DNA from: an uncultured bacterium
Lineage (GTDB): Bacteria > Patescibacteriota > Minisyncoccia > Moranbacterales > UBA2206
Length of the DNA stretch: 64,000 nt
Direction: 5' to 3'
Assembly: GCA_903937035.1 (NCBI GenBank)
Contig: CAIZXS010000012.1
Location: 18,314-82,313, forward strand
Part shown: in pieces, positions 1,109-46,000 of the stretch
Position numbering within the stretch: the stretch's first letter is position 1
Layout: every line of letters begins with the position of its first letter
Program-made: the position numbers and the translations under genes
The notes under the pieces: generated by a model
Seen by the model: the letters and a program-made list of their open reading frames with translations, nothing else
What the model was told of the DNA's origin: nothing
Databases searched by the model: none

Positions 1109-1132
1109 ATTTGAAAGCTTAGTTTTAAGAAA

Positions 1133-1166
1133 GAAAAGTCCCGATTAGTCGGGACTTTTCTTGTTT
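1133..1166 (+). terminator. Rho-independent terminator after first gene (aaagtcccgattagtcgggacttttcttg)
   Basis: Perfect 9-bp stem GTCCCGA..TCGGGAC with 4-nt loop followed by a T-run. Confidence 0.7.
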
Positions 1167-1178
1167 GTTTAGAGATAC

Positions 1179-1216
1179 TTGACAGTGTTAATGTATCAAT
1201 GATAAAATAACACTGT
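1179..1216 (+). promoter_or_regulatory. Sigma70-type promoter (TTGACA ~18 nt TAAAAT) overlapped by inverted repeat ACAGTGTT-N19-AACACTGT; candidate LexA operator
   Basis: ttgaca at 1179-1184 and taaaat at 1204-1209. acagtgtt at 1182-1189 and aacactgt at 1209-1216 straddle the -35/-10, directly upstream of lexA. Confidence 0.4.
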
Positions 1217-1229
1217 AATTATTAAATTC

Positions 1230-1352
1230 ATCCCCCACCACTTTTTTACTCGCATTTACAATGCGGATAGGGGCTAGGTTTCAGGAATATTTATCACATG
1301 CACCGATTGTAATTGTGAATTAAAGTCCAAAAGTAAAAAAGTGGTGGGGGAT
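1230..1352 (+). promoter_or_regulatory. Long-range perfect 21-nt inverted repeat in the lexA 5' leader; right arm contains the SD (GGGGGA)
   Basis: atcccccaccacttttttact (1230-1250) and agtaaaaaagtggtgggggat (1332-1352) are exact reverse complements about 80 nt apart. The ATG is at 1360. Confidence 0.6.
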
Positions 1353-1359
1353 AAAAAAT

Positions 1360-2019
1360 ATGATTCTAACTGCAAAACAACAAAACATTCTCGAATCCAT
1401 CCGGGAATTAATCAGTCAGGGCAAAGAAAACCCAACTAGTTATCGTTTGCAAAAATTTCTGGAATCCCAAGGTGTGAAAGATAGTTTGAAATCAGTTATG
1501 CAGGTGATTGAGTCATTGGAAAAAAAGGATCTCATCAAGCGAGATAAGAACAAAAAAATTTATCTGATTGAAAACGAGAACTACACGAACTTCAAAAATA
1601 TTTTTTCTGTTCCAGTATACGGCCTGGCTTCTTGTGGAGAAGCTTTGGCTTATGCGCAGGATAATGTGGATGGCTTCTTGCAGATTTCTAAAGCACTTTT
1701 TCGCGATAAGGACGAATCGCTTTTGTTTGCAGTAAAGGCGCTTGGTGACTCGATGGATAAAGAAAAAATCAATGACGGAGACTATGTTATTTTTGAAAAA
1801 TATGAACATCAAGAAGAATTGGAAGGCAAAATTGTTGTTGCGGTGGTCAACGGCATGGCAACGATTAAGCGTTACAAGAAAGTCAGTGAGGATGTGATTG
1901 GACTTTTCCCAAAATCGACCAATCCGATTCATCAGCCGATTTTCATCCACAAATCCGATTCTTTCATTTTTGCGGGAATTTTCAGAAAAGTTTTGCCGGT
2001 GAAGTATGTCAGCCTATAA
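1360..2019 (+). CDS. lexA: LexA repressor (wHTH + S24 peptidase domain)
   Basis: N-terminus 'LTAKQQNILESIRELISQGKENPT' resembles E. coli LexA 'LTARQQEVFDLIRDHISQTG'. C-terminal S24 motifs 'ALGDSM' (Ser) and 'TIKRYKK' (Lys) with 'VVAVVNG'. Confidence 0.85.
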   Translation: MILTAKQQNILESIRELISQGKENPTSYRLQKFLESQGVKDSLKSVMQVIESLEKKDLIKRDKNKKIYLIENENYTNFKNIFSVPVYGLASCGEALAYAQDNVDGFLQISKALFRDKDESLLFAVKALGDSMDKEKINDGDYVIFEKYEHQEELEGKIVVAVVNGMATIKRYKKVSEDVIGLFPKSTNPIHQPIFIHKSDSFIFAGIFRKVLPVKYVSL

Positions 2020-2761: not shown

Positions 2762-5755
2762 ATGCAGGAAGAATTGATTATTCGCGGAGCGCGCGAACAC
2801 AATCTGAAAAATATTAACCTCAATTTACCAAGAGGTAAATTTGTTGTGTTTACTGGAATATCTGGTTCAGGGAAAAGTACGCTGGCTTTTGATACGATTT
2901 TTGCCGAGGGACAAAGACGCTATTTGGAAAGTCTTTCTAGCTATGCGCGGCAGTTTTTGGGTCAAATGGGAAAACCGGAAGTGGATTCGATTGAGGGCCT
3001 CAGTCCTGCGATTTCGATTGACCAAAAAGCCGCTTCACACAATCCGCGCTCAACTGTGGGCACAGTGACGGAAATTCATGACTATTTGCGCTTGCTTTAT
3101 GCGAAAATTGGCACCGCGCATTGTCCGATTTGCAACCGGGAAATCGTGAAACTTTCCACAGATGAGATTGTGGACAGAATTTTGAATATTTGTACGGAGG
3201 AGGGCAAGAAATCGGCCAAGGATAATTGTGCAATTGAAATTTTTTCTCCAATTGTGCGAGAGCGCAAAGGTGAATATTCCACGCTTTTGGAGGAGATGTT
3301 TCGGCGTGGTTTTTCCACTGCGTTTGTGAATGGAAAAAAGCATGTCCTGGATGAAAAGATTGGGACGCGGGTAAAATTGGAACGCTACAAAAAACATAAT
3401 ATTGACATTTTGGTCGACAAAGTGGAAATAAATTCAGAGAATATTTCACGGATTTTTGAAGGCGTCGAGCAGGCACTGAAACTTTCCAAGGGTATTGTCA
3501 GAATAAAATTTCAAAATCCTAATTTCCAATTTCAAACCAAATCCAAAGTTCAAAATTCTAATGACAAAAAAGATAAAGAAATAAAAAAAGTTAAGGATGG
3601 AGAAAAAGATAAAATCAGCGAGATGATTTTTAATCAGAATTTTTCTTGCCCGGTGCATGAGGTGGATTTTCCCGAGCTCGAGCCGCGTTTGTTTTCTTTC
3701 AATAGCCCGTTTGGGGCTTGTCCATCTTGCGAAGGCTTGGGCGTGAAAAAGGAAATTGATCCCGATTTGGTTGTACCGGATATGAATAAAACCATCGCCG
3801 AAGGTGGAATCATGCCATGGAGTTACAAAAAAAATAACTGGCAGGGGACGATTTTGCGGGCTGTTACTAACTTCTATCACATCCGCGACAACGTGCGTTT
3901 GCGTGATTTATCGGAAGATGATTTTAATACTTTGCTCTATGGTGGACCTGACGCTGAGGATATGATTTCCGAAGACGCGGCCGATGAAATCCCCGTGACT
4001 CTGCGCAGCAAAACCGGATCAAGTTGGAAGTATAATATGCGTTGGCGGGGAGTGGTTGGTTATCTGCAGGAGCGTTATCTCAAAACGGATTCGGAAGGCG
4101 TGCGCACTGACATTGAAAAATACATGTCGCAAAATCCTTGTTCGACTTGTCTCGGGTCACGCTATAAAAAAGAAGTCTTGCTTGTGACCGTGGGAAATAA
4201 AAATATCCAAGAAGTTTCCATGATCAGCGTGCGGGAGACTTTAGATTTTTTTCAGAAAATAAAGTTTAGTAAACGCGAAGAACTGATTGCGAGCAGAATT
4301 CTCAAGGAAATTCAAAATCGCTTGGGTTTTTTACAAGATGTTGGTCTCGGGTATCTCTCGCTTGGTCGCGCGGCGAACACCCTGGCCGGTGGAGAGTCGC
4401 AACGCATTCGATTGGCTTCGCAAATCGGCTCACAGCTCGTTGGCGTGCTCTATATCCTCGATGAGCCATCGATTGGTCTTCATGCTCGTGACAACGCCAA
4501 GTTGCTCGCTACGCTCTTGCAATTACGCGATGTGGGAAATACTTTGATTGTGGTGGAGCACGACGAAGAAACAATGCGCGCGGCGGATTATCTAGTGGAC
4601 ATTGGACCGGGAGCGGGAAAACATGGCGGAGAAATTGTAGCGGAAGGCTCACCCGAAGAAGTGTTGAAAAGTGAAAAATCCTTGACGGCTAAATATTTAC
4701 GCGGTGATTTGCAGATCGAAATTCCTAATTTTCGGCGACCTTTGAAAAACAAAAAAACACTCGTAGTGCGGGGAGCACGCGAGCATAATTTGCAAAATAT
4801 CACTGTGTCATTTCCATTGAAAGTTTTGACTTGTGTGACGGGCGTGTCTGGGTCAGGAAAATCTACGCTTGTGGAAGATATTCTCTATAAAGCCCTGTCG
4901 GCCAAAATTATGCGTTCCTTGGAGCGACCAGGTAAACATAGTGAAATTGTCGGCGATCATTATCTCAACAAAGTGATTATGATTGATCAGTCGCCGATTG
5001 GTCGCACGCCCAGATCGAATCCGGCGACCTACACGGGTCTGTTTACTGCCATTCGCGAACTATTCGCCGAAACGCGCGACGCCAAAGCGAAAGGTTATTT
5101 GCCGGGAAGATTTTCCTTTAATGTTAAAGGTGGACGTTGCGATAATTGTCAGGGTGATGGGTATAACAAAATTGAAATGCAGTTTATGCCGGATGTCTAT
5201 CTTCCCTGTGATGTTTGTGCTGGAAAAAGATATAATAGCGAAACGCTCAAAGTGAAGTATCGTGATAAAAATATTGCCGATGTACTAGCCCTGACCATTT
5301 CCGAAGCCCGCGAATTTTTTGCTAATTTTCACGACATCGCGGACAAACTGAAAGTTCTCGAAGATGTCGGCTTGGGCTACATTCAACTCGGCCAATCCGC
5401 CACGACACTTTCCGGGGGAGAGGCCCAACGCATCAAGCTTTCCACCGAACTTTCTAGGCGAGCGACAGGGGATACACTCTACATTTTAGACGAACCGACA
5501 ACTGGCTTGCATTTTGATGACATTAAAAAACTACTAGGCATTCTCAATCGCTTGGTTGATGCAGGAAATACGGTTATTGTTATTGAACATAATTTAGACG
5601 TAATCAAAACCGCCGATTGGATTATTGATCTGGGACCGGAAGGTGGTAAAGAAGGTGGAAAGGTAATTGTCAGTGGTACGCCGGAAGAGGTGGCGAAGTG
5701 GCATAAGGAGAGTTGGACGGGGAAATATTTGAAGGAAGTTTTGAATAAAAAATAA
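2762..5755 (+). CDS. uvrA: Excinuclease ABC subunit A (UvrA), full-length two-ABC-module form with a low-complexity insertion
   Basis: '[53 protein letters not shown]' with two Walker A motifs ([18 protein letters not shown]). Zn-finger Cys pairs and ABC signatures [16 protein letters not shown]. Lys/Asn/Gln-rich insert around residues 255-285. Confidence 0.95.
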   Translation: MQEELIIRGAREHNLKNINLNLPRGKFVVFTGISGSGKSTLAFDTIFAEGQRRYLESLSSYARQFLGQMGKPEVDSIEGLSPAISIDQKAASHNPRSTVGTVTEIHDYLRLLYAKIGTAHCPICNREIVKLSTDEIVDRILNICTEEGKKSAKDNCAIEIFSPIVRERKGEYSTLLEEMFRRGFSTAFVNGKKHVLDEKIGTRVKLERYKKHNIDILVDKVEINSENISRIFEGVEQALKLSKGIVRIKFQNPNFQFQTKSKVQNSNDKKDKEIKKVKDGEKDKISEMIFNQNFSCPVHEVDFPELEPRLFSFNSPFGACPSCEGLGVKKEIDPDLVVPDMNKTIAEGGIMPWSYKKNNWQGTILRAVTNFYHIRDNVRLRDLSEDDFNTLLYGGPDAEDMISEDAADEIPVTLRSKTGSSWKYNMRWRGVVGYLQERYLKTDSEGVRTDIEKYMSQNPCSTCLGSRYKKEVLLVTVGNKNIQEVSMISVRETLDFFQKIKFSKREELIASRILKEIQNRLGFLQDVGLGYLSLGRAANTLAGGESQRIRLASQIGSQLVGVLYILDEPSIGLHARDNAKLLATLLQLRDVGNTLIVVEHDEETMRAADYLVDIGPGAGKHGGEIVAEGSPEEVLKSEKSLTAKYLRGDLQIEIPNFRRPLKNKKTLVVRGAREHNLQNITVSFPLKVLTCVTGVSGSGKSTLVEDILYKALSAKIMRSLERPGKHSEIVGDHYLNKVIMIDQSPIGRTPRSNPATYTGLFTAIRELFAETRDAKAKGYLPGRFSFNVKGGRCDNCQGDGYNKIEMQFMPDVYLPCDVCAGKRYNSETLKVKYRDKNIADVLALTISEAREFFANFHDIADKLKVLEDVGLGYIQLGQSATTLSGGEAQRIKLSTELSRRATGDTLYILDEPTTGLHFDDIKKLLGILNRLVDAGNTVIVIEHNLDVIKTADWIIDLGPEGGKEGGKVIVSGTPEEVAKWHKESWTGKYLKEVLNKK

Positions 5756-5765
5756 CACAATAAAG

Positions 5766-5955
5766 TGTCATCCCTGCGACCGCGTGCCGCCTTAGCTTTA
5801 GCGGTGGAGCAAGGCGGGGATCCAGGCACCTCGGGTCATAAGAAAAGAAAAACGAGATTTACTGGTTAAAAAATAAAAGTTAGAAGATTTATAATTCGAT
5901 TTTCCAGGGCTTAAAACTAGTGGAACCTAGATTCCCGCCTCCGCGGGAATGACAG
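5766..5955. repeat. MITE-like palindromic element (~190 bp) with terminal inverted repeats TGTCATCCCTGCG / CGCGGGAATGACA
   Basis: Ends are near reverse complements. Internal mini-palindrome attcccgcctccgcgggaat (5932-5950) is the reverse complement of the copy at 48722-48741. GC-rich relative to surroundings. Confidence 0.6.
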
Positions 5956-6362: not shown

Positions 6363-7610
6363 ATGTCAACTACTAAAATTGCTAAAAAACTAAAAAGTCT
6401 GCCAACTTCTCCTGGTGTCTACATCTTCAAAAATGATGCGGAGGTTATTTTATATGTGGGAAAAGCGACGTCGCTAAAAGACAGGGTTTCGTCATATTTT
6501 CAAAGTCGCAGTGGCTATGCTCGGCCAATCGAGATGTTTATGGACCAAGTCGCGGATATTGAAGTTCGGAAAACAGAAACAGTCCTCGAGGCATATATTT
6601 TGGAGCAGGAACTGATCAAGAATTGGCAGCCGAAGTTTAATGTGGATGGAAAAGATGATAAATCATTTTCTTATGTTGCAATTACAAAAGAAGATTTTCC
6701 ACGCATATTATTTTTACGAAAAAGAGAGATAGATCAAGATAGCGAAATAAAATCAAAATTTAGCAAAATCTATGGGCCATATATCTCAAAGAAAAATATT
6801 GAAATCGCACTGAAGATTCTCAGAAAAATTTTTCCTTATCATTCCAAAGTGCAAAAAACAGAGAAGGGTTGTTTGGATTTTCAGATTGGACTTTGTCCTG
6901 GGCCGTATGCTGGGGCGATTTCGAAAGATGATTATGCGAAAAATATTAGGGGAATCAAGATGATTTTAGCGGGGAAGAAAAAAGGTCTTATTGCCAAGAT
7001 GAAAAAGGAAATGTCGGATCTGAGTGAGAAACAAGAATTTGAAAAGGCTGGGAAGGTGAGAAATGCGATTTTTGCGTTGCAGTATATTCGCGATATTGCA
7101 CTCGTGTCATATAGTATGAAACATGAAACATATAACAAAAATGCAAATACAAAATCATTTCGCATCGAGGGTTATGATATTTCGAATATTTCTGGACGGT
7201 CCAGTGTTGGGTCTATGGTTGTTTTTGATAATTCTCAAGGGGAAATGGTAGCGAACAAAAGTCAGTATCGCAAATTTAAAATTAAAACGGTGGAAGGTGC
7301 GAATGACACGGCTTCAATGGCGGAAATTTTGGGGCGCAGATTTGGGAATAATTGGCCGCGGCCAGATCTCATAATTTTAGACGGTGGACAAGGGCATCTC
7401 ACTGCTGTGAGGCGTGTGCTCAAGAATTTTCATCTGGAAATTCCACTGCTCGCTGTCGCCAAGGGACCAAAGCGCAAAAAACTAGACCGCTATGCTTTCG
7501 GCAGTGTGCCGGAAATTTCGGACGAAATCATCGAACGCGTCAGGGATGAGGCGCATCGGTTTGCGATTACGTATCATAAAAAATTGCGGGGGAAGAGTTT
7601 TATGGAATAG
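6363..7610 (+). CDS. uvrC: Short UvrC (GIY-YIG + UVR + RNase H-like endonuclease domains; no C-terminal (HhH)2 domain)
   Basis: 'PTSPGVYIFKNDAEVILYVGKATSLKDRVSSYF' is GIY-YIG. 'EFEKAGKVRNAIFALQYI' is the UVR motif. 'RIEGYDISNISGRSSVGSMVVF...YRKFKIK...DDTASMAEILGRRF' is the second nuclease domain. Ends right after the 'RFAITYHKKLR' motif. Confidence 0.8.
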   Translation: MSTTKIAKKLKSLPTSPGVYIFKNDAEVILYVGKATSLKDRVSSYFQSRSGYARPIEMFMDQVADIEVRKTETVLEAYILEQELIKNWQPKFNVDGKDDKSFSYVAITKEDFPRILFLRKREIDQDSEIKSKFSKIYGPYISKKNIEIALKILRKIFPYHSKVQKTEKGCLDFQIGLCPGPYAGAISKDDYAKNIRGIKMILAGKKKGLIAKMKKEMSDLSEKQEFEKAGKVRNAIFALQYIRDIALVSYSMKHETYNKNANTKSFRIEGYDISNISGRSSVGSMVVFDNSQGEMVANKSQYRKFKIKTVEGANDTASMAEILGRRFGNNWPRPDLIILDGGQGHLTAVRRVLKNFHLEIPLLAVAKGPKRKKLDRYAFGSVPEISDEIIERVRDEAHRFAITYHKKLRGKSFME

Positions 7611-7721: not shown

Positions 7722-10700
7722 TTGCGGATGAGAAAAATAAAAAAAACAAGAAAAATAGCTCTTAGGTTGAGAAGAATATTTTTCAAAATCAGGCAATTTA
7801 AGCTCAGACTTTTTTGGGTTGTTTTTTCGGCGGGCGCGAAGAGTTTGCCAGGGCGTTTTTGTGCGGGAATGAAAAAAATTCCCGGGACGATGGCAAATTT
7901 ACCAAGAAATATAAGAAATTTAAAATGGGTAAATATTAAGACTTTTTCTCGCAGAAATTATCCCTTGCTCTTGGCGATTGTGTTTTTGACCCCGGCTTTT
8001 ATTTTACTTTTCCTTTTTGTTAATTCTCGCATTCACAAGCAAACGACTCAAGCGGCGCCGTTTACAGGCGCAGTGAGAGTTTCCAAAGAGAACACCACTC
8101 TTTCGACCGCGGGAGGATGGCTCAAATCAATGGCTTTCTCCGGAGATGGAATCAATGGGGATGGTGATTATTTTCAGCCCATCCATCCTGGAGCCAGAGC
8201 GACCACTGAAGGCGCAGCAGGAACGTTGGCCGTGGGAGAGGTGGTGATGCCAACGATCACAGCTAATGCTTATGATGCGGCTGGGGCGGTGTTTATTCCT
8301 TGGAAGCCAAATACTAATGGAAATTTTTATGGCGTGACCTTGGCAGTGGCGAATCTCAATACTACTGCGGCTAACTTAAATGTAGTGGTGGAACTTTTGC
8401 GTTTTCCAACAGCATCCTATACTGGCACCCCTCCGACTGTTGTCTGGTCTAACTACGTTGCTTGCTCGGCAGTGAATACTTGTGTTTATGCCGCCGATAC
8501 AGTGATTGAAAGAACACAAGTGATGCGTTTTGATCAAAGCATATCCGGCGAAGCGGCCTATCCGGGGCAATACGGAATCCACTATATGGACTTTCGTTTT
8601 GATCCTTTAGCGGTCACGACAACTACGCATTATGGTTTTCGAGTTTATTATAACTCTTTAACGACAGCATCTACTTGGCCCAGGAACGGAGCGTCAAAAC
8701 CAACAGTAAATGCTGCGAATTTTGGTTTAGGAATTACTGATGTGGACACAGCCAACGCCTTGACAGTAACAGTTCCTTTGGCCAATACGACCCAATCGAG
8801 CTATGCAGTGGCAATCAATTCTGCCCCGGCTGTCGGTCAAGCCGCGGCTGCGCGTACTCAAAATGAGCATTGGAGTGGCACTTATTCTGACTCAAGTGGT
8901 AACTGGACGATTGCCGGTTCTGTTTCCGGGGTGCAAACAGCAAAATTGACTTCATCTACCGATGGAGGAACTGGGGTGGCGTGGGTTAATGATGGCGTGA
9001 CAAAGACAACATTGTCAGCTGACGCGACTGCCACTACAAAACTTTGCGTCAGTTCCATTGCTGGTTTTGCAGTCAATCAATATATTGACATCTGGGATGC
9101 GGACACAACTTCAATTCAAAGAATTATTGCTTCCGTGAGTTCTGCTGATGTCGGCTGTTCCAATGGTCCGTCAATTAATGTTACTGCAACTTTGGCAGCG
9201 ACCGATAAATTTACCCTTTCCAAAAATGCGACTGTGGCGCGAGCAATATGGAAATTGAGAATTATCCAAGGAGCGGAAGAAGCCTTCACGGAAAATATGC
9301 CGACAACGACAAAACTTTGCGTGGCCGATGCTTCACGCTTTTCTGTCGAGGCAACTGCCGGATCAAGCAATATTAACATTTGGGACGATAACTCGATCAT
9401 CGCCGCCAGAAGAATCACCACAATTTCATTTGCCGATGCTTCTTGCGCGAGTTTGAATAGTATCACGATTGACACCGCTATTACGGCCGGAACATATACA
9501 ATTGATAAAAACGCCAGAGTGGCGGAAATATCCGCTAATTTTTCTAACAATGGAACCCCGACTGATGGAAATATTTTTCGCTTCACGACTCTTAATATGG
9601 GACAAAATCCCGCCAAAATTGGAAATGGAAACAGTTTTGTTTTGCTGTATGGAAAAACCGCTGCTCCGGCCACTAGTGCGGTTAATTATCCCTGGATTGC
9701 TAACCAGCGGCATGCTTTTTTTGTGGCCTATGGTGATGCGGATACGACGGCGCCAGCTGATGGTGATATGGCGATTATCGGCGGTGGTGCGGCTGATCCT
9801 GACTCAGGTGATTCAGTCAATCTTTCCAATGATTTGGTTTTGGGAAATATTTCTCCACATACGGTTATGGTGGATAAAAATTTCGACATGCCAATGGCCT
9901 ATACAGGAGCGACCGGGGGAGGCGTGGGAAGTGGATTGACTACGCCAGCCACCGCTTCCTATGGTGGATCCGGTTTTGTTTCGATGCTAATCTCGACCAG
10001 GGCCAAGCTGGCTGTTTCCGATGCTATCAATCAGCGCTATCGACTTACTGCACCAGGAAGGATATTGCTATCTTCCGGTGCGTCTTTAGAATTGGGTTCG
10101 TCCGTCGATCCTTTGCTAAAAACAACAACAGTAGACTTATATCAGGATTCTGTCGGTCCATTAGTATCAACTGTGTTAACTTCTGACTCAACAACCAACA
10201 CCTATATTGACATGGCTTCCACTGCCGGGTTCTATATTGGAGATGTAGTAATGATTAAAGATAACAACAGTGTTCCGACAACAAGAATCATTGCGGCAGT
10301 CACTTCTTCCACTCGATTGACTTTCACGGCGGCGATGGTGGCCGGATACACCGTTGCTCAAGGTGCGACGGTTTCTCGCGGACCAAACACTGATGTGCCA
10401 ACCGGAGCAGACAGAAGAAGTTTCATCTATAGTGCCAGGGCTCAAGCAGCTCGAGTGAATATGTACTCTCAAGGGGCAGATGATTATCGGACGCCGCGGG
10501 CTGACTTAGCAGTGGATATCGATGGGAACATTGATACGGGCTATCTTGGAGCGCAACAAACGGCAGCCGGGAATGTTTGGATGGACGCCGCGGGGAGTTT
10601 GGCAGGCGATTGGTCGGCACTTGATCCACTTTCCGTCGCGCAAGGAAATTCCTATGCGGTCAATGATAATGATTCATCAATCGGCATGGGAGCCAATGAT

Positions 10701-13700
10701 GACGCTAGTGTTTTTCCGACTTGGACGGGAGTAGGAAGTCTTGGGACTAATGCTGATGCCGTCTACAATCCGGAGCAAAGTGAAATTGGAACGATTCCGC
10801 TGACCGATATCTATAACTATGACAATACGGGAGGTGTCTTTTCAGTGAACTACCAATCCGCATCTTCGTGGACAATTTTTGGTGATGGAGCAAATACGGA
10901 AAATAACGATGCGGTCTATTTCGGTGATCAGGGAAACACGCCAATCTATGCCTTGGAGTTTAATATTGGAACGGCTATTGGCGCGACTGCTAGTCGAATT
11001 TGGGAATATTGGAATGGATCGGCTTGGACTGAATTTGTTCCAAAATTTGGTTGGAAATATGTCCCGCGCGGAACGAATAATTATGGAGTGGGGGAATATT
11101 GTATCCCGTTTAATGCTGATCCGATATATCCCACAGCCACTGTTCAAATGACGGACACAAACACGCTTTTTGCTCCAGGGCAATACGTGAAAATTAAAGA
11201 CAATGATTCGGCGACCATAATTAGGCGCATTTCCACGGTGACAGCCGGAGCTCCGGCCAATGTAGTTTTCACTGAAATTATTCCGAGTGGCTACACAATT
11301 GCTCAGTCGGCCAAAGTTTGCATTTCAAACGGCGGTCAATGGCTGCCGATGGCGGCAAGTGATTTATTTTCTCAAACCGGGCGTACGATGATTTCTTGGA
11401 ATGCTTGGGATATGCCAAGCGCGGCAAAAACGACAGTCAACAGCACGAATGCTTATTGGGTGAGAAATCGTATTTCTGATTTCACATCTTGGACAACCGC
11501 GCCAATAAATCAGACAACTTCAGTCAGCATGCAAGGAGTGGAAAATGTGAACTCAGAAAATCTGACTGTTTCCAGTTCGGTTAGCGAAGCGAAGATAAGT
11601 CAGCTTTCCAACGGAGTTTCTTTTGATCCCAATGAAACCTGGACCCTTCGATATGATGATAATTCTACAGCTGTTTCAACTCTAAAAACTACTCGCTGGT
11701 ATGAATCGCAACTTGCTTCCTGGGGAACGGCGCATCGTTGGCTCAGTCCCAATCCGGATGGGGAAACTTCTGCTTACTATGAAAAAAATTCACAGGAAGC
11801 CAACTGGCATAGTCTCAACGGTGATTTTTCTTGGACTGATCAAAGTGTCTACGCTAAAGTCTATATGAATCAGCCAGTAGACGCGACAGTGGGAAGGCGC
11901 GTGGGAATATTTTTGCGTCAAGATGGTGATGATTATGGCTATGCTGCTTACATAACTAAATCAACCACCGTTTCTACCTTGGGTTGGTATTCAACTGCGC
12001 TCGGAGCAGAAACGGCAATTGGTACGGCAACTAACATCACCTTTAATGCTAATCAGTGGTATTGTTTGCGCGCTGAAGCAAATGGCACAACTCTTCAGGC
12101 CAAATTTTGGTCACCAGTTTCAGAAGACGCCGATTGTAATGGTGATATCAATGAACCAGGGACTTGGACAGAATCAGAAATAAATCAAACCGCTTTTATT
12201 GCCGGACGATTCGGTTTGGCGGCGGACATAATGCTGGCGCGTTTTGATGATGTAACAGTGAAAAACACAGCTGGCACAGAAACCTGGTTTAATGATAATT
12301 TCAATGATACCGGTTGCTGGAAGGTAATTGGTTCCATTCATGGAAGTCAAGGATGTGCCTATAATTCAGTCCCATTCACTTCTAGCTATCTTAATTTTAC
12401 GCTAAAACATCGAGGGGGGGTGCAATCCGGAGAAACTGGAATCAACGCGATAATCGGCCCATTGAATGCTCCGGAAGAAGGCGATGAAATTTATCTTTCT
12501 CCCTTTGAGCGGGGATCAAGTATCGGACTTGATGAGGCCGTGGGCATCACCACTTCTGACGCAAAAACTAAATATGAAAATTGGGATTTTGTCTATAACT
12601 CAACTTCCGGAAAATATGATGTGACCGGTTCGCAATATGGAGCAGCTGGGACGGCTACACCCGGAGCGACCTATACCTCTCCGGATAGCGAGGTGACCTT
12701 GAGAATAAAAGCGGGAACACCGGTTGGGCCAAAGTTTGGCAATCGAGCAGCTTATTTTCAAAACAGTTTTCAAAGAGGGGTGGGAAATTTTACCGGACTC
12801 AATAATCAATCTTCGGCCATTATCATTCAACCAACCTGGGTAGTAGCTGGTTCAGCCACTGGGTATAATGTTGAAGGAATTGGCGGGGTAGCAACACAAA
12901 AAGGCACAATGGATTTTTGGTTTAAGCCGAATTTTTCCGGCAGTCCTGACTACATACAGTATCTGTTTGATTATGCTCCCAATGGAAATACGGATAGGAT
13001 TTTTGCGCGAATTATGCCCAATGGCGTAATTGAAACTGTGGTTGCCCCGACTTTTGGAGTTGGAGCGACAGGAAAATTGGTCAAATCTTTTTCTGCAACC
13101 GCTGGTCAATGGTATCATTTCCGTTTAGCCTGGGAAGATTCTGATGCTGGACAGCTTAATATTAAAAAGGCCTGGATTGATGGCGCGGCTTTTACGAGTG
13201 CCAGTCAAGGGACAGCCTTGGGAGCGAGAGCGGCTAATGCGGGTTATTTGCGGCTTGGTAATTCTTGGCAGTACAATGCCGGCTTTGATGGCGCGATGGA
13301 TGAGTTCGCTATTTTTGACGATGCTGTCGATACTTCTAGCAGTTGTGACTGGGCATCTTCAGTGGCATTTACTGTTCCCACTACTCCTTGGACCAATGGG
13401 CAAACGGCGGGATGTACCACTGGGGGCGGAGAAGTGAGAACGGGGAATATCATATTTTTGACTCATTTTGACAATGCTTTTGAAAAACAAAAAGGGACAA
13501 TGATGCCGGATTATTTTATTGGACATCCGGCGATGGTTTTCACTAATGGCGCGGAGACACTGACTGGAGACCGGCTTCGTGTGGTGACGTATCCCAAGAG
13601 AACCAGGATTTGGATGGACAATACCGGATCGCAATATACCCCCGCGGCCAGAATCAAATATTCCGAAGGCTATAATATTGGAACCGCTCCCGGAACGGAA

Positions 13701-16700
13701 ATTGGCTGGGGGACAACTTTTCAATATCATCATAGAGCTGCTTCCGATAGCACTAGTCAGCCGATAACTTCACCGATTCTCAACCTAAGAAAACAGATAA
13801 GAATTTGGTCAGACGAAGATGTGAATGTGGCCAATTCTACTGCGCCGATTAATCAGGGATATGGATCACTGCTGTATTGGCCGAAAGCCATTGATGTTAA
13901 TCATATGGAACTTTCCCAATTGTATTATGGTTTTTATCTCTCCGGGAATCCTTTTACGACCAGCTTGCCATACCCCACTCAATATATTCGAAAAAGTGCT
14001 TTTAATAATGTGCAATACTATAATATTTACACTCTTTCCAAAACATTAGGCACTCAGGTGATTGATGATAATAATTTTTCCGCCCAAAGTGCCAATTATT
14101 ATCCTTTTCGAGAAGATACTTCAGCCAACATCACTTTTTCCAATAACTATGTCACGGGTTATTCTTCCGGCTATTTTAACTATTTAAATGGAGGAAGAAT
14201 CTTTAATATTTCTGGAAATAAATTTCTCAATGCTTATTACCCAGTCAGTCTTTTGGCAGGAACGGCCAAGGTTACCATTGCTAATAATGAATTTTGGCGC
14301 TTTCGGCGAGGCATTACGCTTAATGGAAACTCATTCATTCCGATGTCGGGGAATTCCTTTGATGGCGGAACTTCCTCGGAAACCAGCAATGGCTATTACG
14401 GAACAGGCATCTATGTGGCGCCAAGCTCTAGTAATGTAGAGGTGACTGATTCCAATTCAACCTTTGGAAAATCAATTTGGAATGAAGCCGATGTTTCCTT
14501 AGTTCCTGATACCACCTCTTGGCTCGCTGGTTCACTCTTGCGCTATACCGGAGAAAATTCTTCTTTCAATAGTAACTTCCACTATCTAGGCAACTCTACG
14601 CAAGATAAATTCGGTGGTGAATATTTGGCTACCGCTATTCCGGGAGTGGATGTTCGCATGGGGACAGGAAAGGATATTGTTAATTATACTAACTATGGGC
14701 TGATGAGAACGACTGGCCCAAATCTTATCGACACGACAGTTAGAACGTCTGGCGGGTATGCCTGGAGAATGGAATCAACTTCCAAAACTGATGCCTTGGA
14801 ATATACGGCCAAGGTGGTGGGTGTGGCGGGAAAGCCCCTCGCTATCACGGGGTATATCAGGATGAATGCAAATTACGGCACAGCTAATTTGCCAACAGTG
14901 ACTGTTTCCGGGCTGGGGATGACAGGCGCAAATCTTTCGTGGACAGCGAGTGCTACCGCTGACAGTTGGCAACAGTTTGTTATTTCTGGTACCCCAACAG
15001 AATCAGCTCTTGCTACGGTAGCTTTGTCAGTCAAGTCTGAGCCAACTGTGGCCGATTCAGGAACAGCTGAAAATGTTGATGACGGGCAAGGAATAAATGT
15101 GCCGACTCTAATTGAAGATGCAGATAAGAATTGGACTTGGAATCAGTGGACAGGTTACAAAATGCGAGATGACCAGGGCTTCATTTTTGACATTATTGGT
15201 AATACCGCAACCAGATTATTACTAAAAGGTACGCGGATTCCTTTCAGCAACACCTTGCCTACTCAGCCGTATGGTGGAATTTATGAAATATATTCTCCGC
15301 CCTATGTGTATCTGGATGATATTTCCGTTCTTTCTGGGACAGTGGATACGGGAACACTGGATTTCTATTCTCAGGGACAGCCGGTTTCTCCTTGGCTCTC
15401 GACCGGCCTAACAGCGGAAAATATTTGGGGAGCTCAATATTCCACTTTTGCTGATATCACCGGATCATTTGGTCAGTTGCTCAATGATTCCCTTGTTGCA
15501 AAATATTCTCGTGTGTCAGATCTGTCTCCAACTTTGACTGAATTCGACACCGACCTGGATTCCGCGACTGATGATTTCTATAATAATGGAGTAATAATTT
15601 TCACTGAAGGATTAAATGAGGGTGTGATGAGAAGAATTTCTGATTATGCGGGAGCTTCAAAAACAATCACAGTTGATCCGGCTCTGCCACTTATTCCATC
15701 TGACAATAATCGGTTTGCGATTATTGCCGCGACAGCTTCGGCCAGTGGTTCCGGCGGTGGGGCGACTGCTGCTGAGATTTGGAGTTATGTCTCGAGAACT
15801 CTGACGGATGCAACTTTGAATTCCGGAAGCTTGGCTACTGCGGCTGATGTGGCGAATATCCGTGCGGACATTACCAGTGTCCTGACTGAGCTTGGCACAG
15901 GTAATATTTCTGCCATTAAAACTAAAACCGATAGCATTGATTGGTCAGATGTGACCGGATTAGTCACTACGGCGGGCGAAATAAAAGCTAAAACGGACTC
16001 GATCAATTGGTCTGACGTGACGGGAATTGTGACAACTGCCGGGCAAATTAAATCCAAAACTGATACGATCGATTGGGATGCCGTGACTGCCATTAAAACT
16101 AGCACTGATACAATTGCTTGGAGCGATGTAACCGGCATTATTACCAGTAGTGGTCTCATTCAAGCTAAAACTGATACGATTAACTGGAGTGATGTGACGG
16201 GCATTAAAACTGCGACGGATAATATTGATTGGTTGGATATTTCTGCCATCAAAACCAAAACCGATACAATCGCATGGAGTGATGTGACCGGTATTAAATT
16301 AAACACAGACACGATTTCCTGGGGTGACATTACTACAATTAAAGCCAATGTAGCGACCTTGATTGCGGAAATTGGCACTGGCAATATTTCTGCCATTAAA
16401 ACAAGAACTGACAGCATTAATTGGTCTGATGTCACCGGCATCATAACTTCTGCTGGCGAAATTAAAGCCAAAACAGATACAATCGATTGGGCAAATGTCA
16501 CAGGTATCAAAACTAAAACAGATACAATTGATTGGGATAATGTTACAGGCATCAAAACAAAAACCGATACAATAGCTTGGGGTGATATTGCTGTTATCCA
16601 GTCATCAATTGATGCGTTAAATGACATTTCTGCGGCTGACATTTGGACCTATGCCACGCGAACAATTACGGGTGATGTTGCGCTCACGGCTGATTCTCGA

Positions 16701-19700
16701 AAGGCGATTTGGGACACGGCTTGCACAATTCTCAACACTTCCGGAAGTATTGGAAAGCAGGTGTGTGAAAATCTGGACATTAAAGTTTCCGAAGCGGGGG
16801 GGGCAGGTGGTACTACGCTTACGGCGGCTGATGTTTGGAATTATACCACTAGAACGATAACTGGCCTGACTGATCCGGCACTTTCTGCTTTGGCCAGCAG
16901 TGTTTGGGATAATGCTACACGGACGCTTTCATCCTATGGTAATGATATAACTGCGCAGGAAGTTTGGGACACATTGACCTCAAGCCTCACGACAATTGAT
17001 TCAGTCGGAAAACTGCTTGTGACAAATGTTGATGAAACGATTTCTTCTCGCGCAACTCAGGCGAGCGTGGACGCAATGGCTTCTAATTTGGCGACGGTGC
17101 TTTCAGAAATCGGGACTGGCAATATTTCCGCGATAAAAACAAAAACGGACACAATCAATTGGAGCAATGTGACAGGACTTGTGACTACTGCTGGTGAAGT
17201 TAAGTTGAAGACTGACACAATCAACTGGAGCGATATTGGAGCGATCAAAACAAGCACTGACACGATTGATTGGGATGACATTACCACAATCAGGCTCAAA
17301 ACCAATACTATCGAGTGGGGCGATATTGCGGATATCAAATCCAATGTCGCGATCCTTATTTCGGAAATTGGAACGGGCAATATTTCCGCCATCAAAGCGG
17401 GAACGGACACAATTAGTTGGTCTGATATTACCGGACTCATAACCACAAGTGGAGCAATAAAATTGAAAACCGACACGATTGACTGGAACAAAGTTGATGC
17501 GATAAAAACTAAAACGGACACAATCAGTTGGGATGATGTTACAGGTATTAAATTGAAAACGGATACGATTAATTGGACAAACATTGATACGCTTAACTCG
17601 CGAGTGGATACCACCATTTCTTCGCGTGCCTCGCAGGCCAGTTTGGACGCGCATGAATCAGCCGATGCTACCTTTAGAACGAATACTACGGAAAGTCTGG
17701 GTGAAATTTCAACTGACGTGACCAATTTAGTTTTGAATGTGGGAGAGATCCGCACGAGTCTTTCAGCGATTGAAACTAAGATTGATACGATTGGAGCTAA
17801 TCTGAATTCAGTCGATGATAAAATTGACATCCTTGATACTAATGTGGATAGTATTAAAAATACTGCCGAAGACACGAATATTAAGGTTTCTGCTATCCAG
17901 ACAGTCGTGAACAATATTTTAAATAAGTGGGGCTCTTATTCCGCCGCTGATATTATTGGTTATGTTGACGCGCTGGAAGGTTATGTCGGGCAACCGGATG
18001 ATGATTCTTTGCAGGAAACATTATTTGGTCGCCTAAAAAAACTGGACGGATCAGCTGGTGGTGGCGGTACGCTTGATTTGGTCTATGCGCAAGTGCAAGC
18101 TACGCACAATAAACTGTTGTCCGTGGAGAGCGATCTTGGCTTTGAAGGTAAGACGACTAGTGCGTATGATGAGATTGCTGCGATTAAAAATTATGTGGAT
18201 ACGGTTGAAAGCGGGATAAATAATTTGGATAGTCGCACTTCCAGCATTGCCTCTTCTGTCTCAACTGTTTCAAATGACCTCAAAGATGTAACTGGTCAAA
18301 TCGGCAAGGTGGATGTTGGCTCTTTTGATTCCATATTTGAAGTGCAAAAAACTGACATTGAGTCTTTGAAAAACAAGGTATTGGAACTAAAAGCGCTGGC
18401 AGATATTAATCGACAACTGCTGGAACGCACCGTAGATGAGCCCACGGTCAAGGTGATGATGGAATGGGGCTCGGTGATTATTAAATTTATTATTGTTAAT
18501 CCGTCTGACTCGAAAGAACAAAAGGTGCCATTTAAGGCCTATCTTCCAAAGGAAGTCCGCCAGGAATACGTCATGGATCTGGGCGGTATGGAGCTTAATT
18601 ATGACACAACGACGGAACAGTATTATGTAACGGCGGATATTTTTCTGAAATCCGGTCAAGCAATTACTCGCGCAGTTGAGATTAAGGATATTTGGGTGTT
18701 TTCTGACGAAGAGATCGCGTCTATCAGAAAGCAAGCTGATGAGTTGAGTGCTGGACTAACGGACAACTCCTATAAAACTCAAGCCATTACACTTAAGACC
18801 GATATCAATACTCGTCTCGATAGGATTGTCAGGAAGCAAAAGGACAATAACGCTACTCCGCAAGATCATATTTTAGCCTATCGGGAAAATCAAGAAGAAA
18901 TGAAAGCGGTAACAGAAAACACTAAAGCGCTGAAAGATTTATTGCTTAACTCTGGTGTTGGCAAAAATTTTCTGGCTTCAATCGGTGGAATTCAAACTTT
19001 TGCCACCTGGGGGATTGTCTTGGCTTTGATTTTTGGTATGGGCGCTCTGGGATTTTTCTATTATGCTCTCTGGAGAAAAAAAATTATTAATGCTAATAAA
19101 CCCGATCCTAAGGAAGATGAGACTATCAAGACCGACAAAGAGTCTGATCAAGAATTAGAAACACAAATCATTGAGCTTCCGACGCCATCGCCGGCACGCC
19201 TAGTCGGGGTTTCTCTTTCTTGGCAAAAAAAGATTTTCACCGGCTTAGTTGTTTTAGCGAAAGACTTAGTGAGATTTATTGGATATATTTTGAAAAAAAT
19301 AATTTCTCTTTCGATAAAAATTTGGGTGACAGCTCTCATATTAGCGGTGCTGTTTGTAGGGGTTTCTACTCTTTGGCACTATCGAGAAAATGAAAAATTG
19401 AACGTGCAAAAAGAAAAACAATCGATTAGCTTGCCAGAAAACCAAGCAAAGGAAGATATTGAAAATTTAAATGAAAGGGGCAGAAAAGTAACTAAGATGG
19501 TAGATGAAATAAATAAAAAAGCAGAAGAAAAAACCAATACAAATCAAAAAATCGATGCTTTATTAGAAGATCAGGAGCCAGCGATGGATGAGTCAGGAAA
19601 GGCAGAAAAAGAAAATAAATTGGTGATAAAGAATACTCCAACTAATTTTCTCAATGTTCGCAAGGATTCATCAGTAGAGAGTGAGATTGTTGGCAAGGTT

Positions 19701-26012: not shown

Positions 26013-26152
26013 TGTCATCCTGAGCGTAGTCGAAGGATCTGCTTGGGATAACTGCAAGCTTTACCATAAATCATAAAGCCTGTGATAATGGAAGGCAGAT
26101 CCTTCGACTTCATAAATTTTCTATTGAAAATTTATTCCGCTCAGGATGACAA
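26013..26152. repeat. MITE-like palindromic element (140 bp) with TIRs TGTCATCCTGAGCG / CGCTCAGGATGACA and internal inverted repeat tcgaaggatctgc / gcagatccttcga
   Basis: Perfect 14-bp terminal inverted repeats and a nested 13-bp inverted repeat. It overlaps the ORF-track start codon of the next gene. Confidence 0.7.
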
Positions 26153-29098: not shown

Positions 29099-29287
29099 AA
29101 ACTAAAAAAGGTAATGGAAAACAATATCAAAACGAGGGGGTATGATTCATTTCATGCCCTTTGTTTTTTGGCTGAAAAAAGTTATCCACAGTTGCTTTCT
29201 TTCCCCCTTCTTGTTTCCCATAAGACATTTAATCGGATTTGTGGTATAATTTAGTTATAAAATACAAAAAAGATAAAAATAAAAAAT

Positions 29288-40110: not shown

Positions 40111-40262
40111 TGCGCCGGACAGGAACTGAGCTTTAATTTTAAAAGCCTAATATCAAATTTCCAATCAAATCCAAAATTCAAAGTCCAAAGCATTTTTGAC
40201 ATTTGGATTTCGAGTTTTGCTTGACATTGGAAATTTGAGCTTTGAAGTTATTCATTTCTACG

Positions 40263-40544: not shown

Positions 40545-40640
40545 CGAAACCATGAAACATGTAGCATAAAACATGTAACAGGATAAATTATACATCAAAT
40601 CATGCTTTTGTTACATGCTGCATGTTTTATGTTTCATGAG
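40545..40640. repeat. Imperfect ~30-bp-arm palindrome in tRNA operon spacer (catgaaacatgtagcataaaacatgtaaca ... tgttacatgctgcatgttttatgtttcatg)
   Basis: Arms are near reverse complements with permuted inner 7-mers. Shares the atgaaacatgtaaca motif with two coding regions (7117, 62739). Confidence 0.6.
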
Positions 40641-43396: not shown

Positions 43397-43605
43397 TGTC
43401 ATTCCCGCACCCATTTCACGAGCATGAGTTCCGGCGGCCTGCCTGCCGGTAGACAGGGAATCCAGTTTCTGGTCTATATTAAAATACGAAATCGTTCTGG
43501 TTAGAATCTTTTGCTTATCAAGACGCGAAGATGGTTGTGCTTTATTGAGTTTTCCTACTAGATTCCCGCCGGAGTTTATGCTCGTGAAACGGGTGCGGGA
43601 ATGAC
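43397..43605. repeat. MITE-like palindromic element (~209 bp) with TIRs TGTCATTCCCGCACCC / GGGTGCGGGAATGACA and ~45-bp imperfect palindromic arms
   Basis: Terminal 16-mers are exact reverse complements. Subterminal catttcacgagcatgagttccggcgg / ccgccggagtttatgctcgtgaaacg are complementary. Abuts the tsaD stop codon. Confidence 0.7.
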
Positions 43606-43607
43606 AC

Positions 43608-45807: not shown

Positions 45808-45838
45808 GGCCCCATCGTCTATCGGTTAGGACATCAGG
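45808..45838 (+). pseudogene. 5' half of a tRNA-Glu copy (acceptor + D-arm + 5' anticodon stem), truncated
   Basis: ggccccatcgtctatcggttaggacatcagg is identical to the first 31 nt of the complete tRNA-Glu at 45864. Followed by tttttttaccccacaccaattttaat. Confidence 0.7.
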
Positions 45839-45863
45839 TTTTTTTACCCCACACCAATTTTAA

Positions 45864-45935
45864 TGGCCCCATCGTCTATCGGTTAGGACATCAGGTTTTC
45901 ATCCTGAAAAGAGGGGTCCGACTCCCCTTGGGGCT
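45864..45935 (+). tRNA. tRNA-Glu (TTC), complete; T-loop TCCGACT (C at position 54)
   Basis: Acceptor GGCCCCA/TGGGGCT, D-arm GTCT ATCGGTTA GGAC, anticodon stem TCAGG/CCTGA with loop TTTTCAT, T-arm AGGGG TCCGACT CCCCT. Confidence 0.8.
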
Positions 45936-45961
45936 ACAGGCCCAAAATTGGTGTGGGGCAA

Positions 45962-45996
45962 GTCCTGAAAAGAGGGGTTCGACTCCCCTTGGGGCT
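45962..45996 (+). pseudogene. 3' half of a tRNA-Glu copy (3' anticodon stem, variable loop, canonical T-arm TTCGACT, acceptor 3' strand)
   Basis: tcctgaaaagaggggttcgactccccttggggcta matches the tRNA-Glu 3' half except T-loop TTCGA vs TCCGA. Preceded by caggcccaaaattggtgtggggcaag, the inverse of the upstream CCCCACACCAA motif. Confidence 0.7.
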
Positions 45997-46000
45997 ACAT

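Follow-up and report, generated by a model that had tools for sequence, protein, structure and literature searches.

The lexA gene and its operator

A 64,000-nucleotide stretch of contig CAIZXS010000012.1 (hereafter the window), from an uncultured bacterium of the Moranbacterales, carries a lexA-like gene whose leader contains a long, nearly perfect inverted repeat. An earlier note on this DNA had read the repeat as a hairpin that sequesters the lexA ribosome-binding site and adds a layer of translational control to LexA autoregulation. We analysed the gene, its promoter and its leader against a comparison set of 80 species-level Moranbacteria loci around the lexA-like gene; the loci of related genomes and metagenome contigs that were compared with the window are designated by L-numbers (L001 and so on). 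The features of the control region are as follows.

1131-1162, plus strand: terminator-like hairpin of the upstream gene, a 14-bp stem followed by a T-rich tail, which forms the 5' boundary of the lexA control region
1179-1208, plus strand: lexA promoter, with the -35 element TTGACA (1179-1184), an 18-nt spacer and the extended -10 element TGaTAAAAT (1200-1208)
1183-1201, no strand assigned: second, overlapping dyad, in which the upstream half-site CAGTGTTA (1183-1190) lies over the -35 element and has a weak partner, TATCAATG, in this sub-clade
1197-1215, no strand assigned: main LexA-type operator dyad, CAATGATA-AAA-TAACACTG (full site CAATGATAAAATAACACTG), overlapping the -10 element
1227-1250, plus strand: left terminal inverted repeat, consisting of TTCAT, the invariant core CCCCCACCACTTTT and five covarying bases
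1228-1352, plus strand: inserted palindromic repeat of 125 nt, TCATCCCCC...GGGGGAT, extra relative to the empty leader of L001 and L008
1251-1265, plus strand: small inner hairpin, CGCATT-TAC-AATGCG, the sole recurrent interior feature of the ~125-nt subfamily
1332-1355, plus strand: right terminal inverted repeat, which holds GGGGG (1346-1350)
1360-2019, plus strand: lexA-like gene, 219 amino acids (aa), with the serine of GDSM (S131), Lys170 and the CG/AG cleavage-site region conserved

The open reading frame (ORF) at 1360-2019 contains a Peptidase_S24 domain (E = 1.9e-18), and structures of E. coli LexA align with it along its full length (E = 2.5e-10), in an alignment that takes in the cleavage-site region as well as the serine of GDSM and the catalytic lysine. 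Its match to LexA_DNA_bind was weak (16.8 bits versus a cut-off of 23.7 bits), and its score against the NCBIfam LexA equivalog, TIGR00498, was also under the cut-off (87.9 versus 110.95 bits). Ser131 of the GDSM motif and Lys170 are invariant, and an Ala/Cys-Gly cleavage site is present. Judged from its sequence, the product is a LexA-like repressor composed of a winged-helix DNA-binding domain and an S24 self-cleaving domain. Its homologues, with 70-98% identity, belong to Candidatus Moranbacteria, within the candidate phyla radiation (CPR, or Patescibacteria). Downstream of lexA lie uvrA (2762-5755) and uvrC (6363-7610); recA is not present in the 64-kb window.

The promoter that the earlier note had described, TTGACA and TAAAAT separated by 18 nt, is present as given and fits 11 of 12 consensus positions. 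TG at 1200-1201 stands before TAAAAT at 1203-1208, and the TG, TA and AT of this extended -10 element are invariant across 63 distinct related lexA promoters. Transcription is predicted to start at about 1215-1217, approximately 12-15 nt 5' of the left arm of the long inverted repeat. The 8-bp inverted repeat that had been drawn around the promoter, ACAGTGTT (1182-1189) and AACACTGT (1209-1216), is likewise where it was placed; it occurs once in the window, was matched in 0 of 100 shuffles and is conserved across the clade.

The proposal that this repeat is a candidate SOS box stood in part. There is a clade-conserved operator, but its best unit is a tighter dyad across the -10 element, and the left arm of the 8-bp repeat belongs to a third half-site over the -35 element. 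Across the 63 lexA promoters the Moranbacteria dyad has the consensus aGTGnTA-N3-TAnCACt, and its conservation is mirror-symmetric (paired positions 58/57, 46/39, 63/63, 63/62, 36/31, 63/59 and 63/63 of the 63). The copy at 1197-1215 had the best weight-matrix score in the window (23.2), the highest score among shuffles being 15.7. The third, less conserved half-site, CAGTGATA, overlaps the -35 element across the clade and lies 14 nt upstream of the dyad; together with the distal half of the dyad (1209-1216) it makes up the ACAGTGTT/AACACTGT repeat. The second dyad at 1183-1201 scored 12.5, which is not significant alone. As for other DNA-damage genes, the same dyad occurs upstream of recA in the related Moranbacterium loci L109 and L131 (score 15.1), but weight-matrix scoring did not find it upstream of uvrA or uvrC in the window.

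The promoter palindrome therefore appears to be an ordinary autoregulated LexA operator with a clade-specific motif. It resembles the E. coli-type arrangement, in which a palindromic operator covers the promoter of lexA itself and the motif also occurs at recA, but differs from it in its sequence, aGTGnTA-N3-TAnCACt, and in the additional half-site 14 nt upstream. A LexA motif for Patescibacteria was reportedly published by Sanchez-Osuna et al. in 2017. LexA motifs vary widely among phyla (PMC8565304). The clade-wide alignment supplies a LexA motif for Moranbacteria that is directly testable.

A DnaA-box-like sequence, GTTATCCACA, was also seen 8-12 nt upstream of the lexA -35 element in about 50 of the 80 species (L010-L080). 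It is absent from the lexA promoter of the window; a copy of it lies at 29182. Its 113 copies in 594 kb (about 7 expected), of which 63 are not at lexA, mark it as a general, strongly over-represented intergenic motif and was ruled out as a lexA-specific element.

A dispersed inverted repeat in the lexA leader

Two exact 21-nt complementary arms lie in the leader as the earlier note had located them, ATCCCCCACCACTTTTTTACT at 1230-1250 and its reverse complement at 1332-1352. Allowing one mismatch, the inverted repeat reaches 24 nt with 96% complementarity (1227-1250 and 1332-1355). No further matches to the arms were found in the 64-kb window even with three mismatches (0.01 expected), and both the promoter repeat and the long arms are confirmed to be far beyond chance. 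When the RNA from 1215 to 1375 was folded, the long-range helix was part of the minimum-energy structure as well as of the centroid (-53.1 kcal/mol, z = -5.8), and none of 200 shuffles was equally stable. The fold supports the predicted occlusion of the start region. Of the pairs in this near-perfect 24-bp stem, 10 are G-C. Opening positions -18 to +12 would cost 30.7 kcal/mol in the window, 28.1 in L002 and 21.2 in L006; the corresponding cost in lexA leaders that lack the repeat is 3.9 kcal/mol (L001) and 1.3 kcal/mol (L008).

The sequence GGGGGA (1346-1351), 8 nt 5' of the ATG at 1360, had been taken for the lexA Shine-Dalgarno. This identification did not survive. A Shine-Dalgarno-like motif is absent in 31 of 38 genes of the window, whose leaders are A/T-rich, and the empty lexA leaders of L001 and L008 also lack one; GGGGGA is therefore the G-rich end of the repeat rather than a native ribosome-binding site. 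As a separate observation, a strong AGGAGG precedes only a few genes of the window, among them two small ORFs located between lexA and uvrA, at 2104-2355 (83 aa) and 2383-2622 (79 aa), neither of which has a Pfam match.

Comparison of lexA leaders indicates that the hairpin is an addition to this locus. Among Moranbacteria lexA loci the distance from operator to ATG is bimodal. About two dozen species have a short leader of 15-25 nt with no Shine-Dalgarno, for example AATTATTAAAAATAAAAAATATG in L001, whereas in most other species the leader consists of 47-330 nt of unrelated sequence. Among the closest relatives, whose LexA proteins are 93-98% identical, the leaders compare with that of the window as follows.

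L001, L008: empty
L002: same element as in the window
L006: ends as in the window, interior different
L003, L004/L005, L007: other inserts

The nearest relative by lexA DNA (L003, 90%) carries a different insert. Alignment of the window with L001 places the insertion point at AAT^AAAAAATATG. The elements of the window and L002 are 90% identical, whereas four-fold degenerate sites of their lexA genes differ at 53%; the interiors of the window and L006 elements are 64% identical. The window and L002 elements would thus be either younger than the species split or constrained. Given how freely the interior varies within the family, as in L006, recent mobility is the simpler of the two. A 20-codon ORF within the element (1261-1323) was also considered. 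It is in frame in L002 but differs there by three non-synonymous and one synonymous change, has no Shine-Dalgarno and was judged non-coding by eye.

A second site shows the same pattern of occupancy. The leader of a gene for a Cys-rich membrane protein, a homologue of which is encoded by the ORF at 29-1108 of the window, is filled in L006, L011, L016 and L017 and empty in the window, L001-3, L007-10 and L012-14. The inserts there have the same arms and the small inner hairpin, and their right arm ends 7-9 nt before the ATG. L006 carries copies at both lexA and the Cys-rich gene. The junction AAT^AAAAAA(N)TATG is common to these two independent sites; in the window the junctions read AAT|TCAT...GGGGGAT|AAAAAA, which allows a duplication of 'AT' at most.

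A BLAST search with the leader of the window against all compared loci revealed the same arms elsewhere, and when metagenomes were scanned with the right arm, AAGTGGTGGGGGATAAA, at least 120 stretches matched, with both arms in 70 of 125 matches. In total, metagenome stretches and genome loci yielded 72 non-identical elements of 33-290 nt on CPR-like contigs, mainly in size classes of ~36, 62, 105 and 125 nt. Their flanking genes are unrelated and include recA, ddl, HU, pilM, a MiaA-like gene, UDP-glucose dehydrogenase and membrane proteins. Single contigs contain two or three copies in L006, L093, L125, L161, L162 and L188, and copies from the same contig are the most alike. In the recA leader of L131, the operator and promoter are followed by other hairpins, a CCCCCACCAC element and then the ATG.

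The elements have terminal inverted repeats of 19-24 bp, TTYAT-CCCCCACCAC-TTTT, with the core pair CCCCCACCAC...GTGGTGGGGG. Each end consists of TTYAT, the invariant core CCCCCACCACTTTT and approximately five positions that are variable but complementary. The interior is poorly conserved, apart from a recurrent small G+C-rich hairpin beside either arm. Across 58 arm pairs, 90% of cells were paired versus ~55% in slid controls, and none of 500 shuffles attained the covariation score of 0.198 (versus 0.075). Changes on both sides of the stem cluster in columns 19-24 and all lie just inward of the invariant core. These patterns point to a stem that is maintained in the family. Mismatches in the stem, scored on the mRNA-sense strand, are few and show no excess of G.U over A.C.

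Of 66 ATAAA ends, 23 (35%) are located 5-17 nt upstream of a real ORF start, although the metagenome search pattern itself contained ATAAA and the sample is therefore biased; the ATGAA end abuts an ORF start in 2 of 31 cases, and random positions do so in 6%. In both ATGAA-end cases the ATG of the element itself is in frame with the gene, which suggests selection against elements whose gene-proximal end has an out-of-frame ATG. Both the position near start codons and the orientation may be explained by the target, because it is an asymmetric A-run typical of start-codon-proximal leaders.

Explanations for the lexA hairpin

[quoted passage not shown] The lexA hairpin is most probably one such copy, inserted below an autoregulated promoter, and any effect on LexA a by-product of the insertion rather than a conserved layer of control. 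In this reading, lexA is transcribed from a sigma-70-type extended -10 promoter under the dyad operator, and a 125-nt copy of the repeat sits at AAT^AAAAAA in a short, A-rich leader without a Shine-Dalgarno. The element would be co-transcribed with lexA because the conserved promoter sits upstream. Its two ends would then form a nearly perfect helix of ~24 bp that leaves 4 nt free before the AUG and has positions -28 to -5 buried in it, and access of the ribosome would require that the helix be cut, as by RNase III in the Correia elements of Neisseria, or unwound. The net result, in this lineage only, would probably be LexA synthesis that is lower or dependent on processing.

Several points weigh against this interpretation. 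Membership among MITEs is incomplete: no transposase-bearing parent was found, there being no arm pairs 320-6000 nt apart in the 1.46 Mb examined, and the junctions have no clear target-site duplication beyond the possible 'AT'. The window contains a single canonical copy, and the metagenome contigs are placed only by their low G+C and, in some, by Moranbacteria-type genes or motifs. A selected function would also fit the likeness of the window and L002 elements, which is far above that of neutral sites, as well as the invariance of the 14-nt core and the orientation of ATAAA ends at start codons.

The alternative closest to the earlier note is that the helix is a dedicated cis-regulatory RNA of lexA, whether a switch, a thermometer or a protein target, that hides the Shine-Dalgarno on top of autoregulation. 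In favour of this are the exceptional stability of the helix and its end only 4 nt from the AUG, and the element is kept at lexA in the window, L002 and L006; like thermometers and translational riboswitches, it lies over the ribosome landing site just 5' of the AUG. Thermometers, however, use short, mismatched stems that can melt, whereas this one is near-perfect over 24 bp, G+C-rich and would cost ~31 kcal/mol to open; such a stem cannot work as a thermometer. A riboswitch stays with its gene and conserves the core that binds its ligand, whereas here the core is variable and the element is not specific to a gene and is not kept at lexA. Rfam at gathering thresholds returned only tRNAs in the whole window and no match for the leader element, and a permissive search of 1100-1420 returned only sub-threshold matches to generic long hairpins of the miRNA-precursor kind. 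We therefore rejected both the riboswitch and the thermometer. An intrinsic terminator or attenuator was also rejected: the helix is followed by AUAAAAAAUAUG, and a terminator scan found none at 1227-1360. The element is absent or replaced in L001, L003, L004, L007 and L008 despite the 93-98% identity of their LexA proteins, the same arms precede many unrelated genes, and the organism is largely independent of Shine-Dalgarno sequences. With its arms identified as the ends of a dispersed repeat that is missing from the lexA leaders of close relatives, a dedicated extra layer of LexA control is scarcely credible.

Selection could instead act on the family as a whole, as a domesticated, regulon-like post-transcriptional module in which a host factor (RNase III, a helicase or a double-stranded RNA-binding protein) gates translation and lexA and recA are placed under it deliberately. 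Such a module would fit the preference of ATAAA ends for ORF starts, a 14-nt core that is invariant beyond the needs of pairing, and the conservation of the element far above that of synonymous sites between the window and L002. It would also fit the fact that lexA and recA, the SOS master genes, each carry a copy below a LexA operator in different genomes, and that long inverted repeats with an end no more than 25 nt from the ATG are enriched 3.8-fold at lexA (8/75 lexA loci versus 9/294 other genes, odds ratio 3.8, p = 0.010). The flanking genes, however, have no common function, and presence is polymorphic among close relatives. The asymmetric target AAT^AAAAAA accounts for position and orientation without selection, the ATAAA in the search pattern introduces ascertainment bias, and invariant ends fit a transposase recognition site equally well; we consider the module unlikely. 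In a related form, the CCCCCACCAC elements would be portable translational gates, inserted at AAT^AAAAAA 8-10 nt before start codons in an organism whose initiation is mostly independent of a Shine-Dalgarno; each would hold the initiation region of the gene it hits in a 24-bp helix, opened only by an activity that processes or unwinds double-stranded RNA, and would be kept by selection. The invariant core, the bias in orientation and a conservation well above that of neutral sites would fit such gates, which we also hold to be improbable. A final alternative is that the palindromes act as DNA, forming cruciforms or binding nucleoid, recombination or replication proteins, with the effect on RNA incidental. 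The lack of a G.U excess among stem mismatches gives no specific sign of selection on RNA, and the interior can be flipped relative to the arms, as would follow from DNA recombination between inverted repeats. The mismatches are too few for the G.U/A.C comparison to discriminate, proximity to start codons is the sole positional logic known for the family and no candidate protein is known; we regard action as DNA as very unlikely.

Among known systems, the closest analogue of the inserted repeat appears to be the Correia element of Neisseria (CREE/NEMIS), which is likewise non-coding, ~100-150 nt long with inverted repeats of ~25 nt, intergenic, often located in the 5' untranslated region, and variable in presence between strains. 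A helix like the one predicted at lexA is a textbook substrate of RNase III. In Neisseria the enzyme cuts mRNAs where the inverted repeats of a Correia element pair (PMC10969869, PMC2649163), and these co-transcribed long hairpins alter the expression of adjacent genes (PMC2649163, PMC10969869); cleavage at lexA would be by analogy. The 64-kb window yielded no RNase III motif, but a sample of this size is too small to bear on the genome. The two families are not similar in sequence. Insertion of a Correia element duplicates a TA target, and the element can give rise to promoters and IHF sites, whereas here there is no clear duplication and no promoter was seen. Unlike Correia elements, the present family targets an A-run before start codons in a Shine-Dalgarno-poor CPR genome, and its interior is far more variable, with elements of 33-290 nt. 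ERIC/IRU, RUP and other bacterial MITE-like repeats are also small imperfect palindromes in transcribed intergenic regions whose folding alters mRNA stability, but they belong to other phyla and have other sequences, and the effects of ERIC are described for insertions at 3' ends. No repeat family is reported to target the translation-initiation region; a review that covers ERIC and RNase E has no mention of ribosome-binding sites or of Patescibacteria (PMC10969869). Our literature search found no report of small mobile repeats in CPR/Patescibacteria, and the family is apparently undescribed so far.

Other repeats and inserts in the window and around lexA

The tRNA genes of the window also contain unusual repeats. 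At 45809-45999 a tRNA-Glu(UUC) is nested within another tRNA-Glu, in the order 5' half (45809-45843), arm TTACCCCACACCAATTTT, whole tRNA-Glu (45865-45937), complementary arm and 3' half (45963-45999). The arrangement is predicted to fold as a perfect double cloverleaf (-82.9 kcal/mol, z = -4.3) and is identical across four independent assemblies. The closest relative, L206, has one intact tRNA-Glu equal to the outer halves of the window joined. The arms of the tRNA insert match the lexA-element repeat at 16 of 19 positions, with a spacing of 82 versus 81 nt, and shuffles gave 0.45 hits per window; the interior of the element has no significant similarity to tRNA-Glu (p = 0.15). A match of this degree is too common to establish kinship between the two sets of arms.

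The T-loop sequence TTCGA is near-universal among tRNAs. The outer 3' half and L206 have the canonical T-loop TTCGACT, and the inner tRNA-Glu (45865-45937) and the single tRNA-Glu of L207 and L209 have TCCGACT, with C at position 55. In these relatives a conserved, hairpin-rich insert of ~190 nt follows tRNA-Glu, upstream of dedA (L207 ~1013-1200, L209 ~992-1195, L206 804-1200). It ends in a direct repeat of the last ~19 nt of the tRNA (CGACTCCCCTTGAGGCTAC), with two tandem units in L206, and has the appearance of a scar left by integration at a tRNA attachment site, or of a small structured RNA there. Elsewhere in the window, the tRNA cluster Arg-His-Lys-Arg has long imperfect inverted repeats with arms of 30-37 nt between its genes (40153-40238 and 40551-40638), and 7722-20543 forms a single ORF that begins with TTG and encodes 4273 aa.

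A second palindromic family, whose ends read TGTCATYCC...GGRATGACA, is represented by three copies in the window (5766-5954, 26013-26151 and 43397-43606) and by seven more in L006, L015, L029, L080, L150, L196 and L200. One window copy lies immediately after uvrA, and the right arm of another covers the ATG of the gene at 26146. By eye, its terminal motif is also present in the lexA leaders of L014, L015 and L029.

Other inserts found in lexA leaders likewise match sequences elsewhere in other genomes. In many Moranbacteria, a gene for a Bro-N, ORF6N, RhuM plus Fic or PD-(D/E)XK nuclease protein lies between the LexA operator and lexA (L043, L058, L061, L064, L066-L069, L071, L073, L075 and L077). 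These small genes, of the type found on mobile elements, presumably gain SOS-inducible expression there. The interval from the SOS promoter to lexA thus appears to be a recurrent landing pad in Moranbacteria, for several families of hairpin repeats as well as for genes, and elements that land in it would gain DNA-damage-inducible expression.

The idea of a dedicated LexA riboregulator is replaced by a testable one, that a selfish palindromic repeat in the lexA leader probably throttles LexA synthesis in this lineage only. Were the elements portable gates after all, CPR bacteria would possess a post-transcriptional switch that is mobile and reusable, acting on lexA here and on recA elsewhere. 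Small mobile repeats are almost undescribed in CPR/Patescibacteria, and the present family appears to be abundant there, with a precise target at the translation-initiation region.

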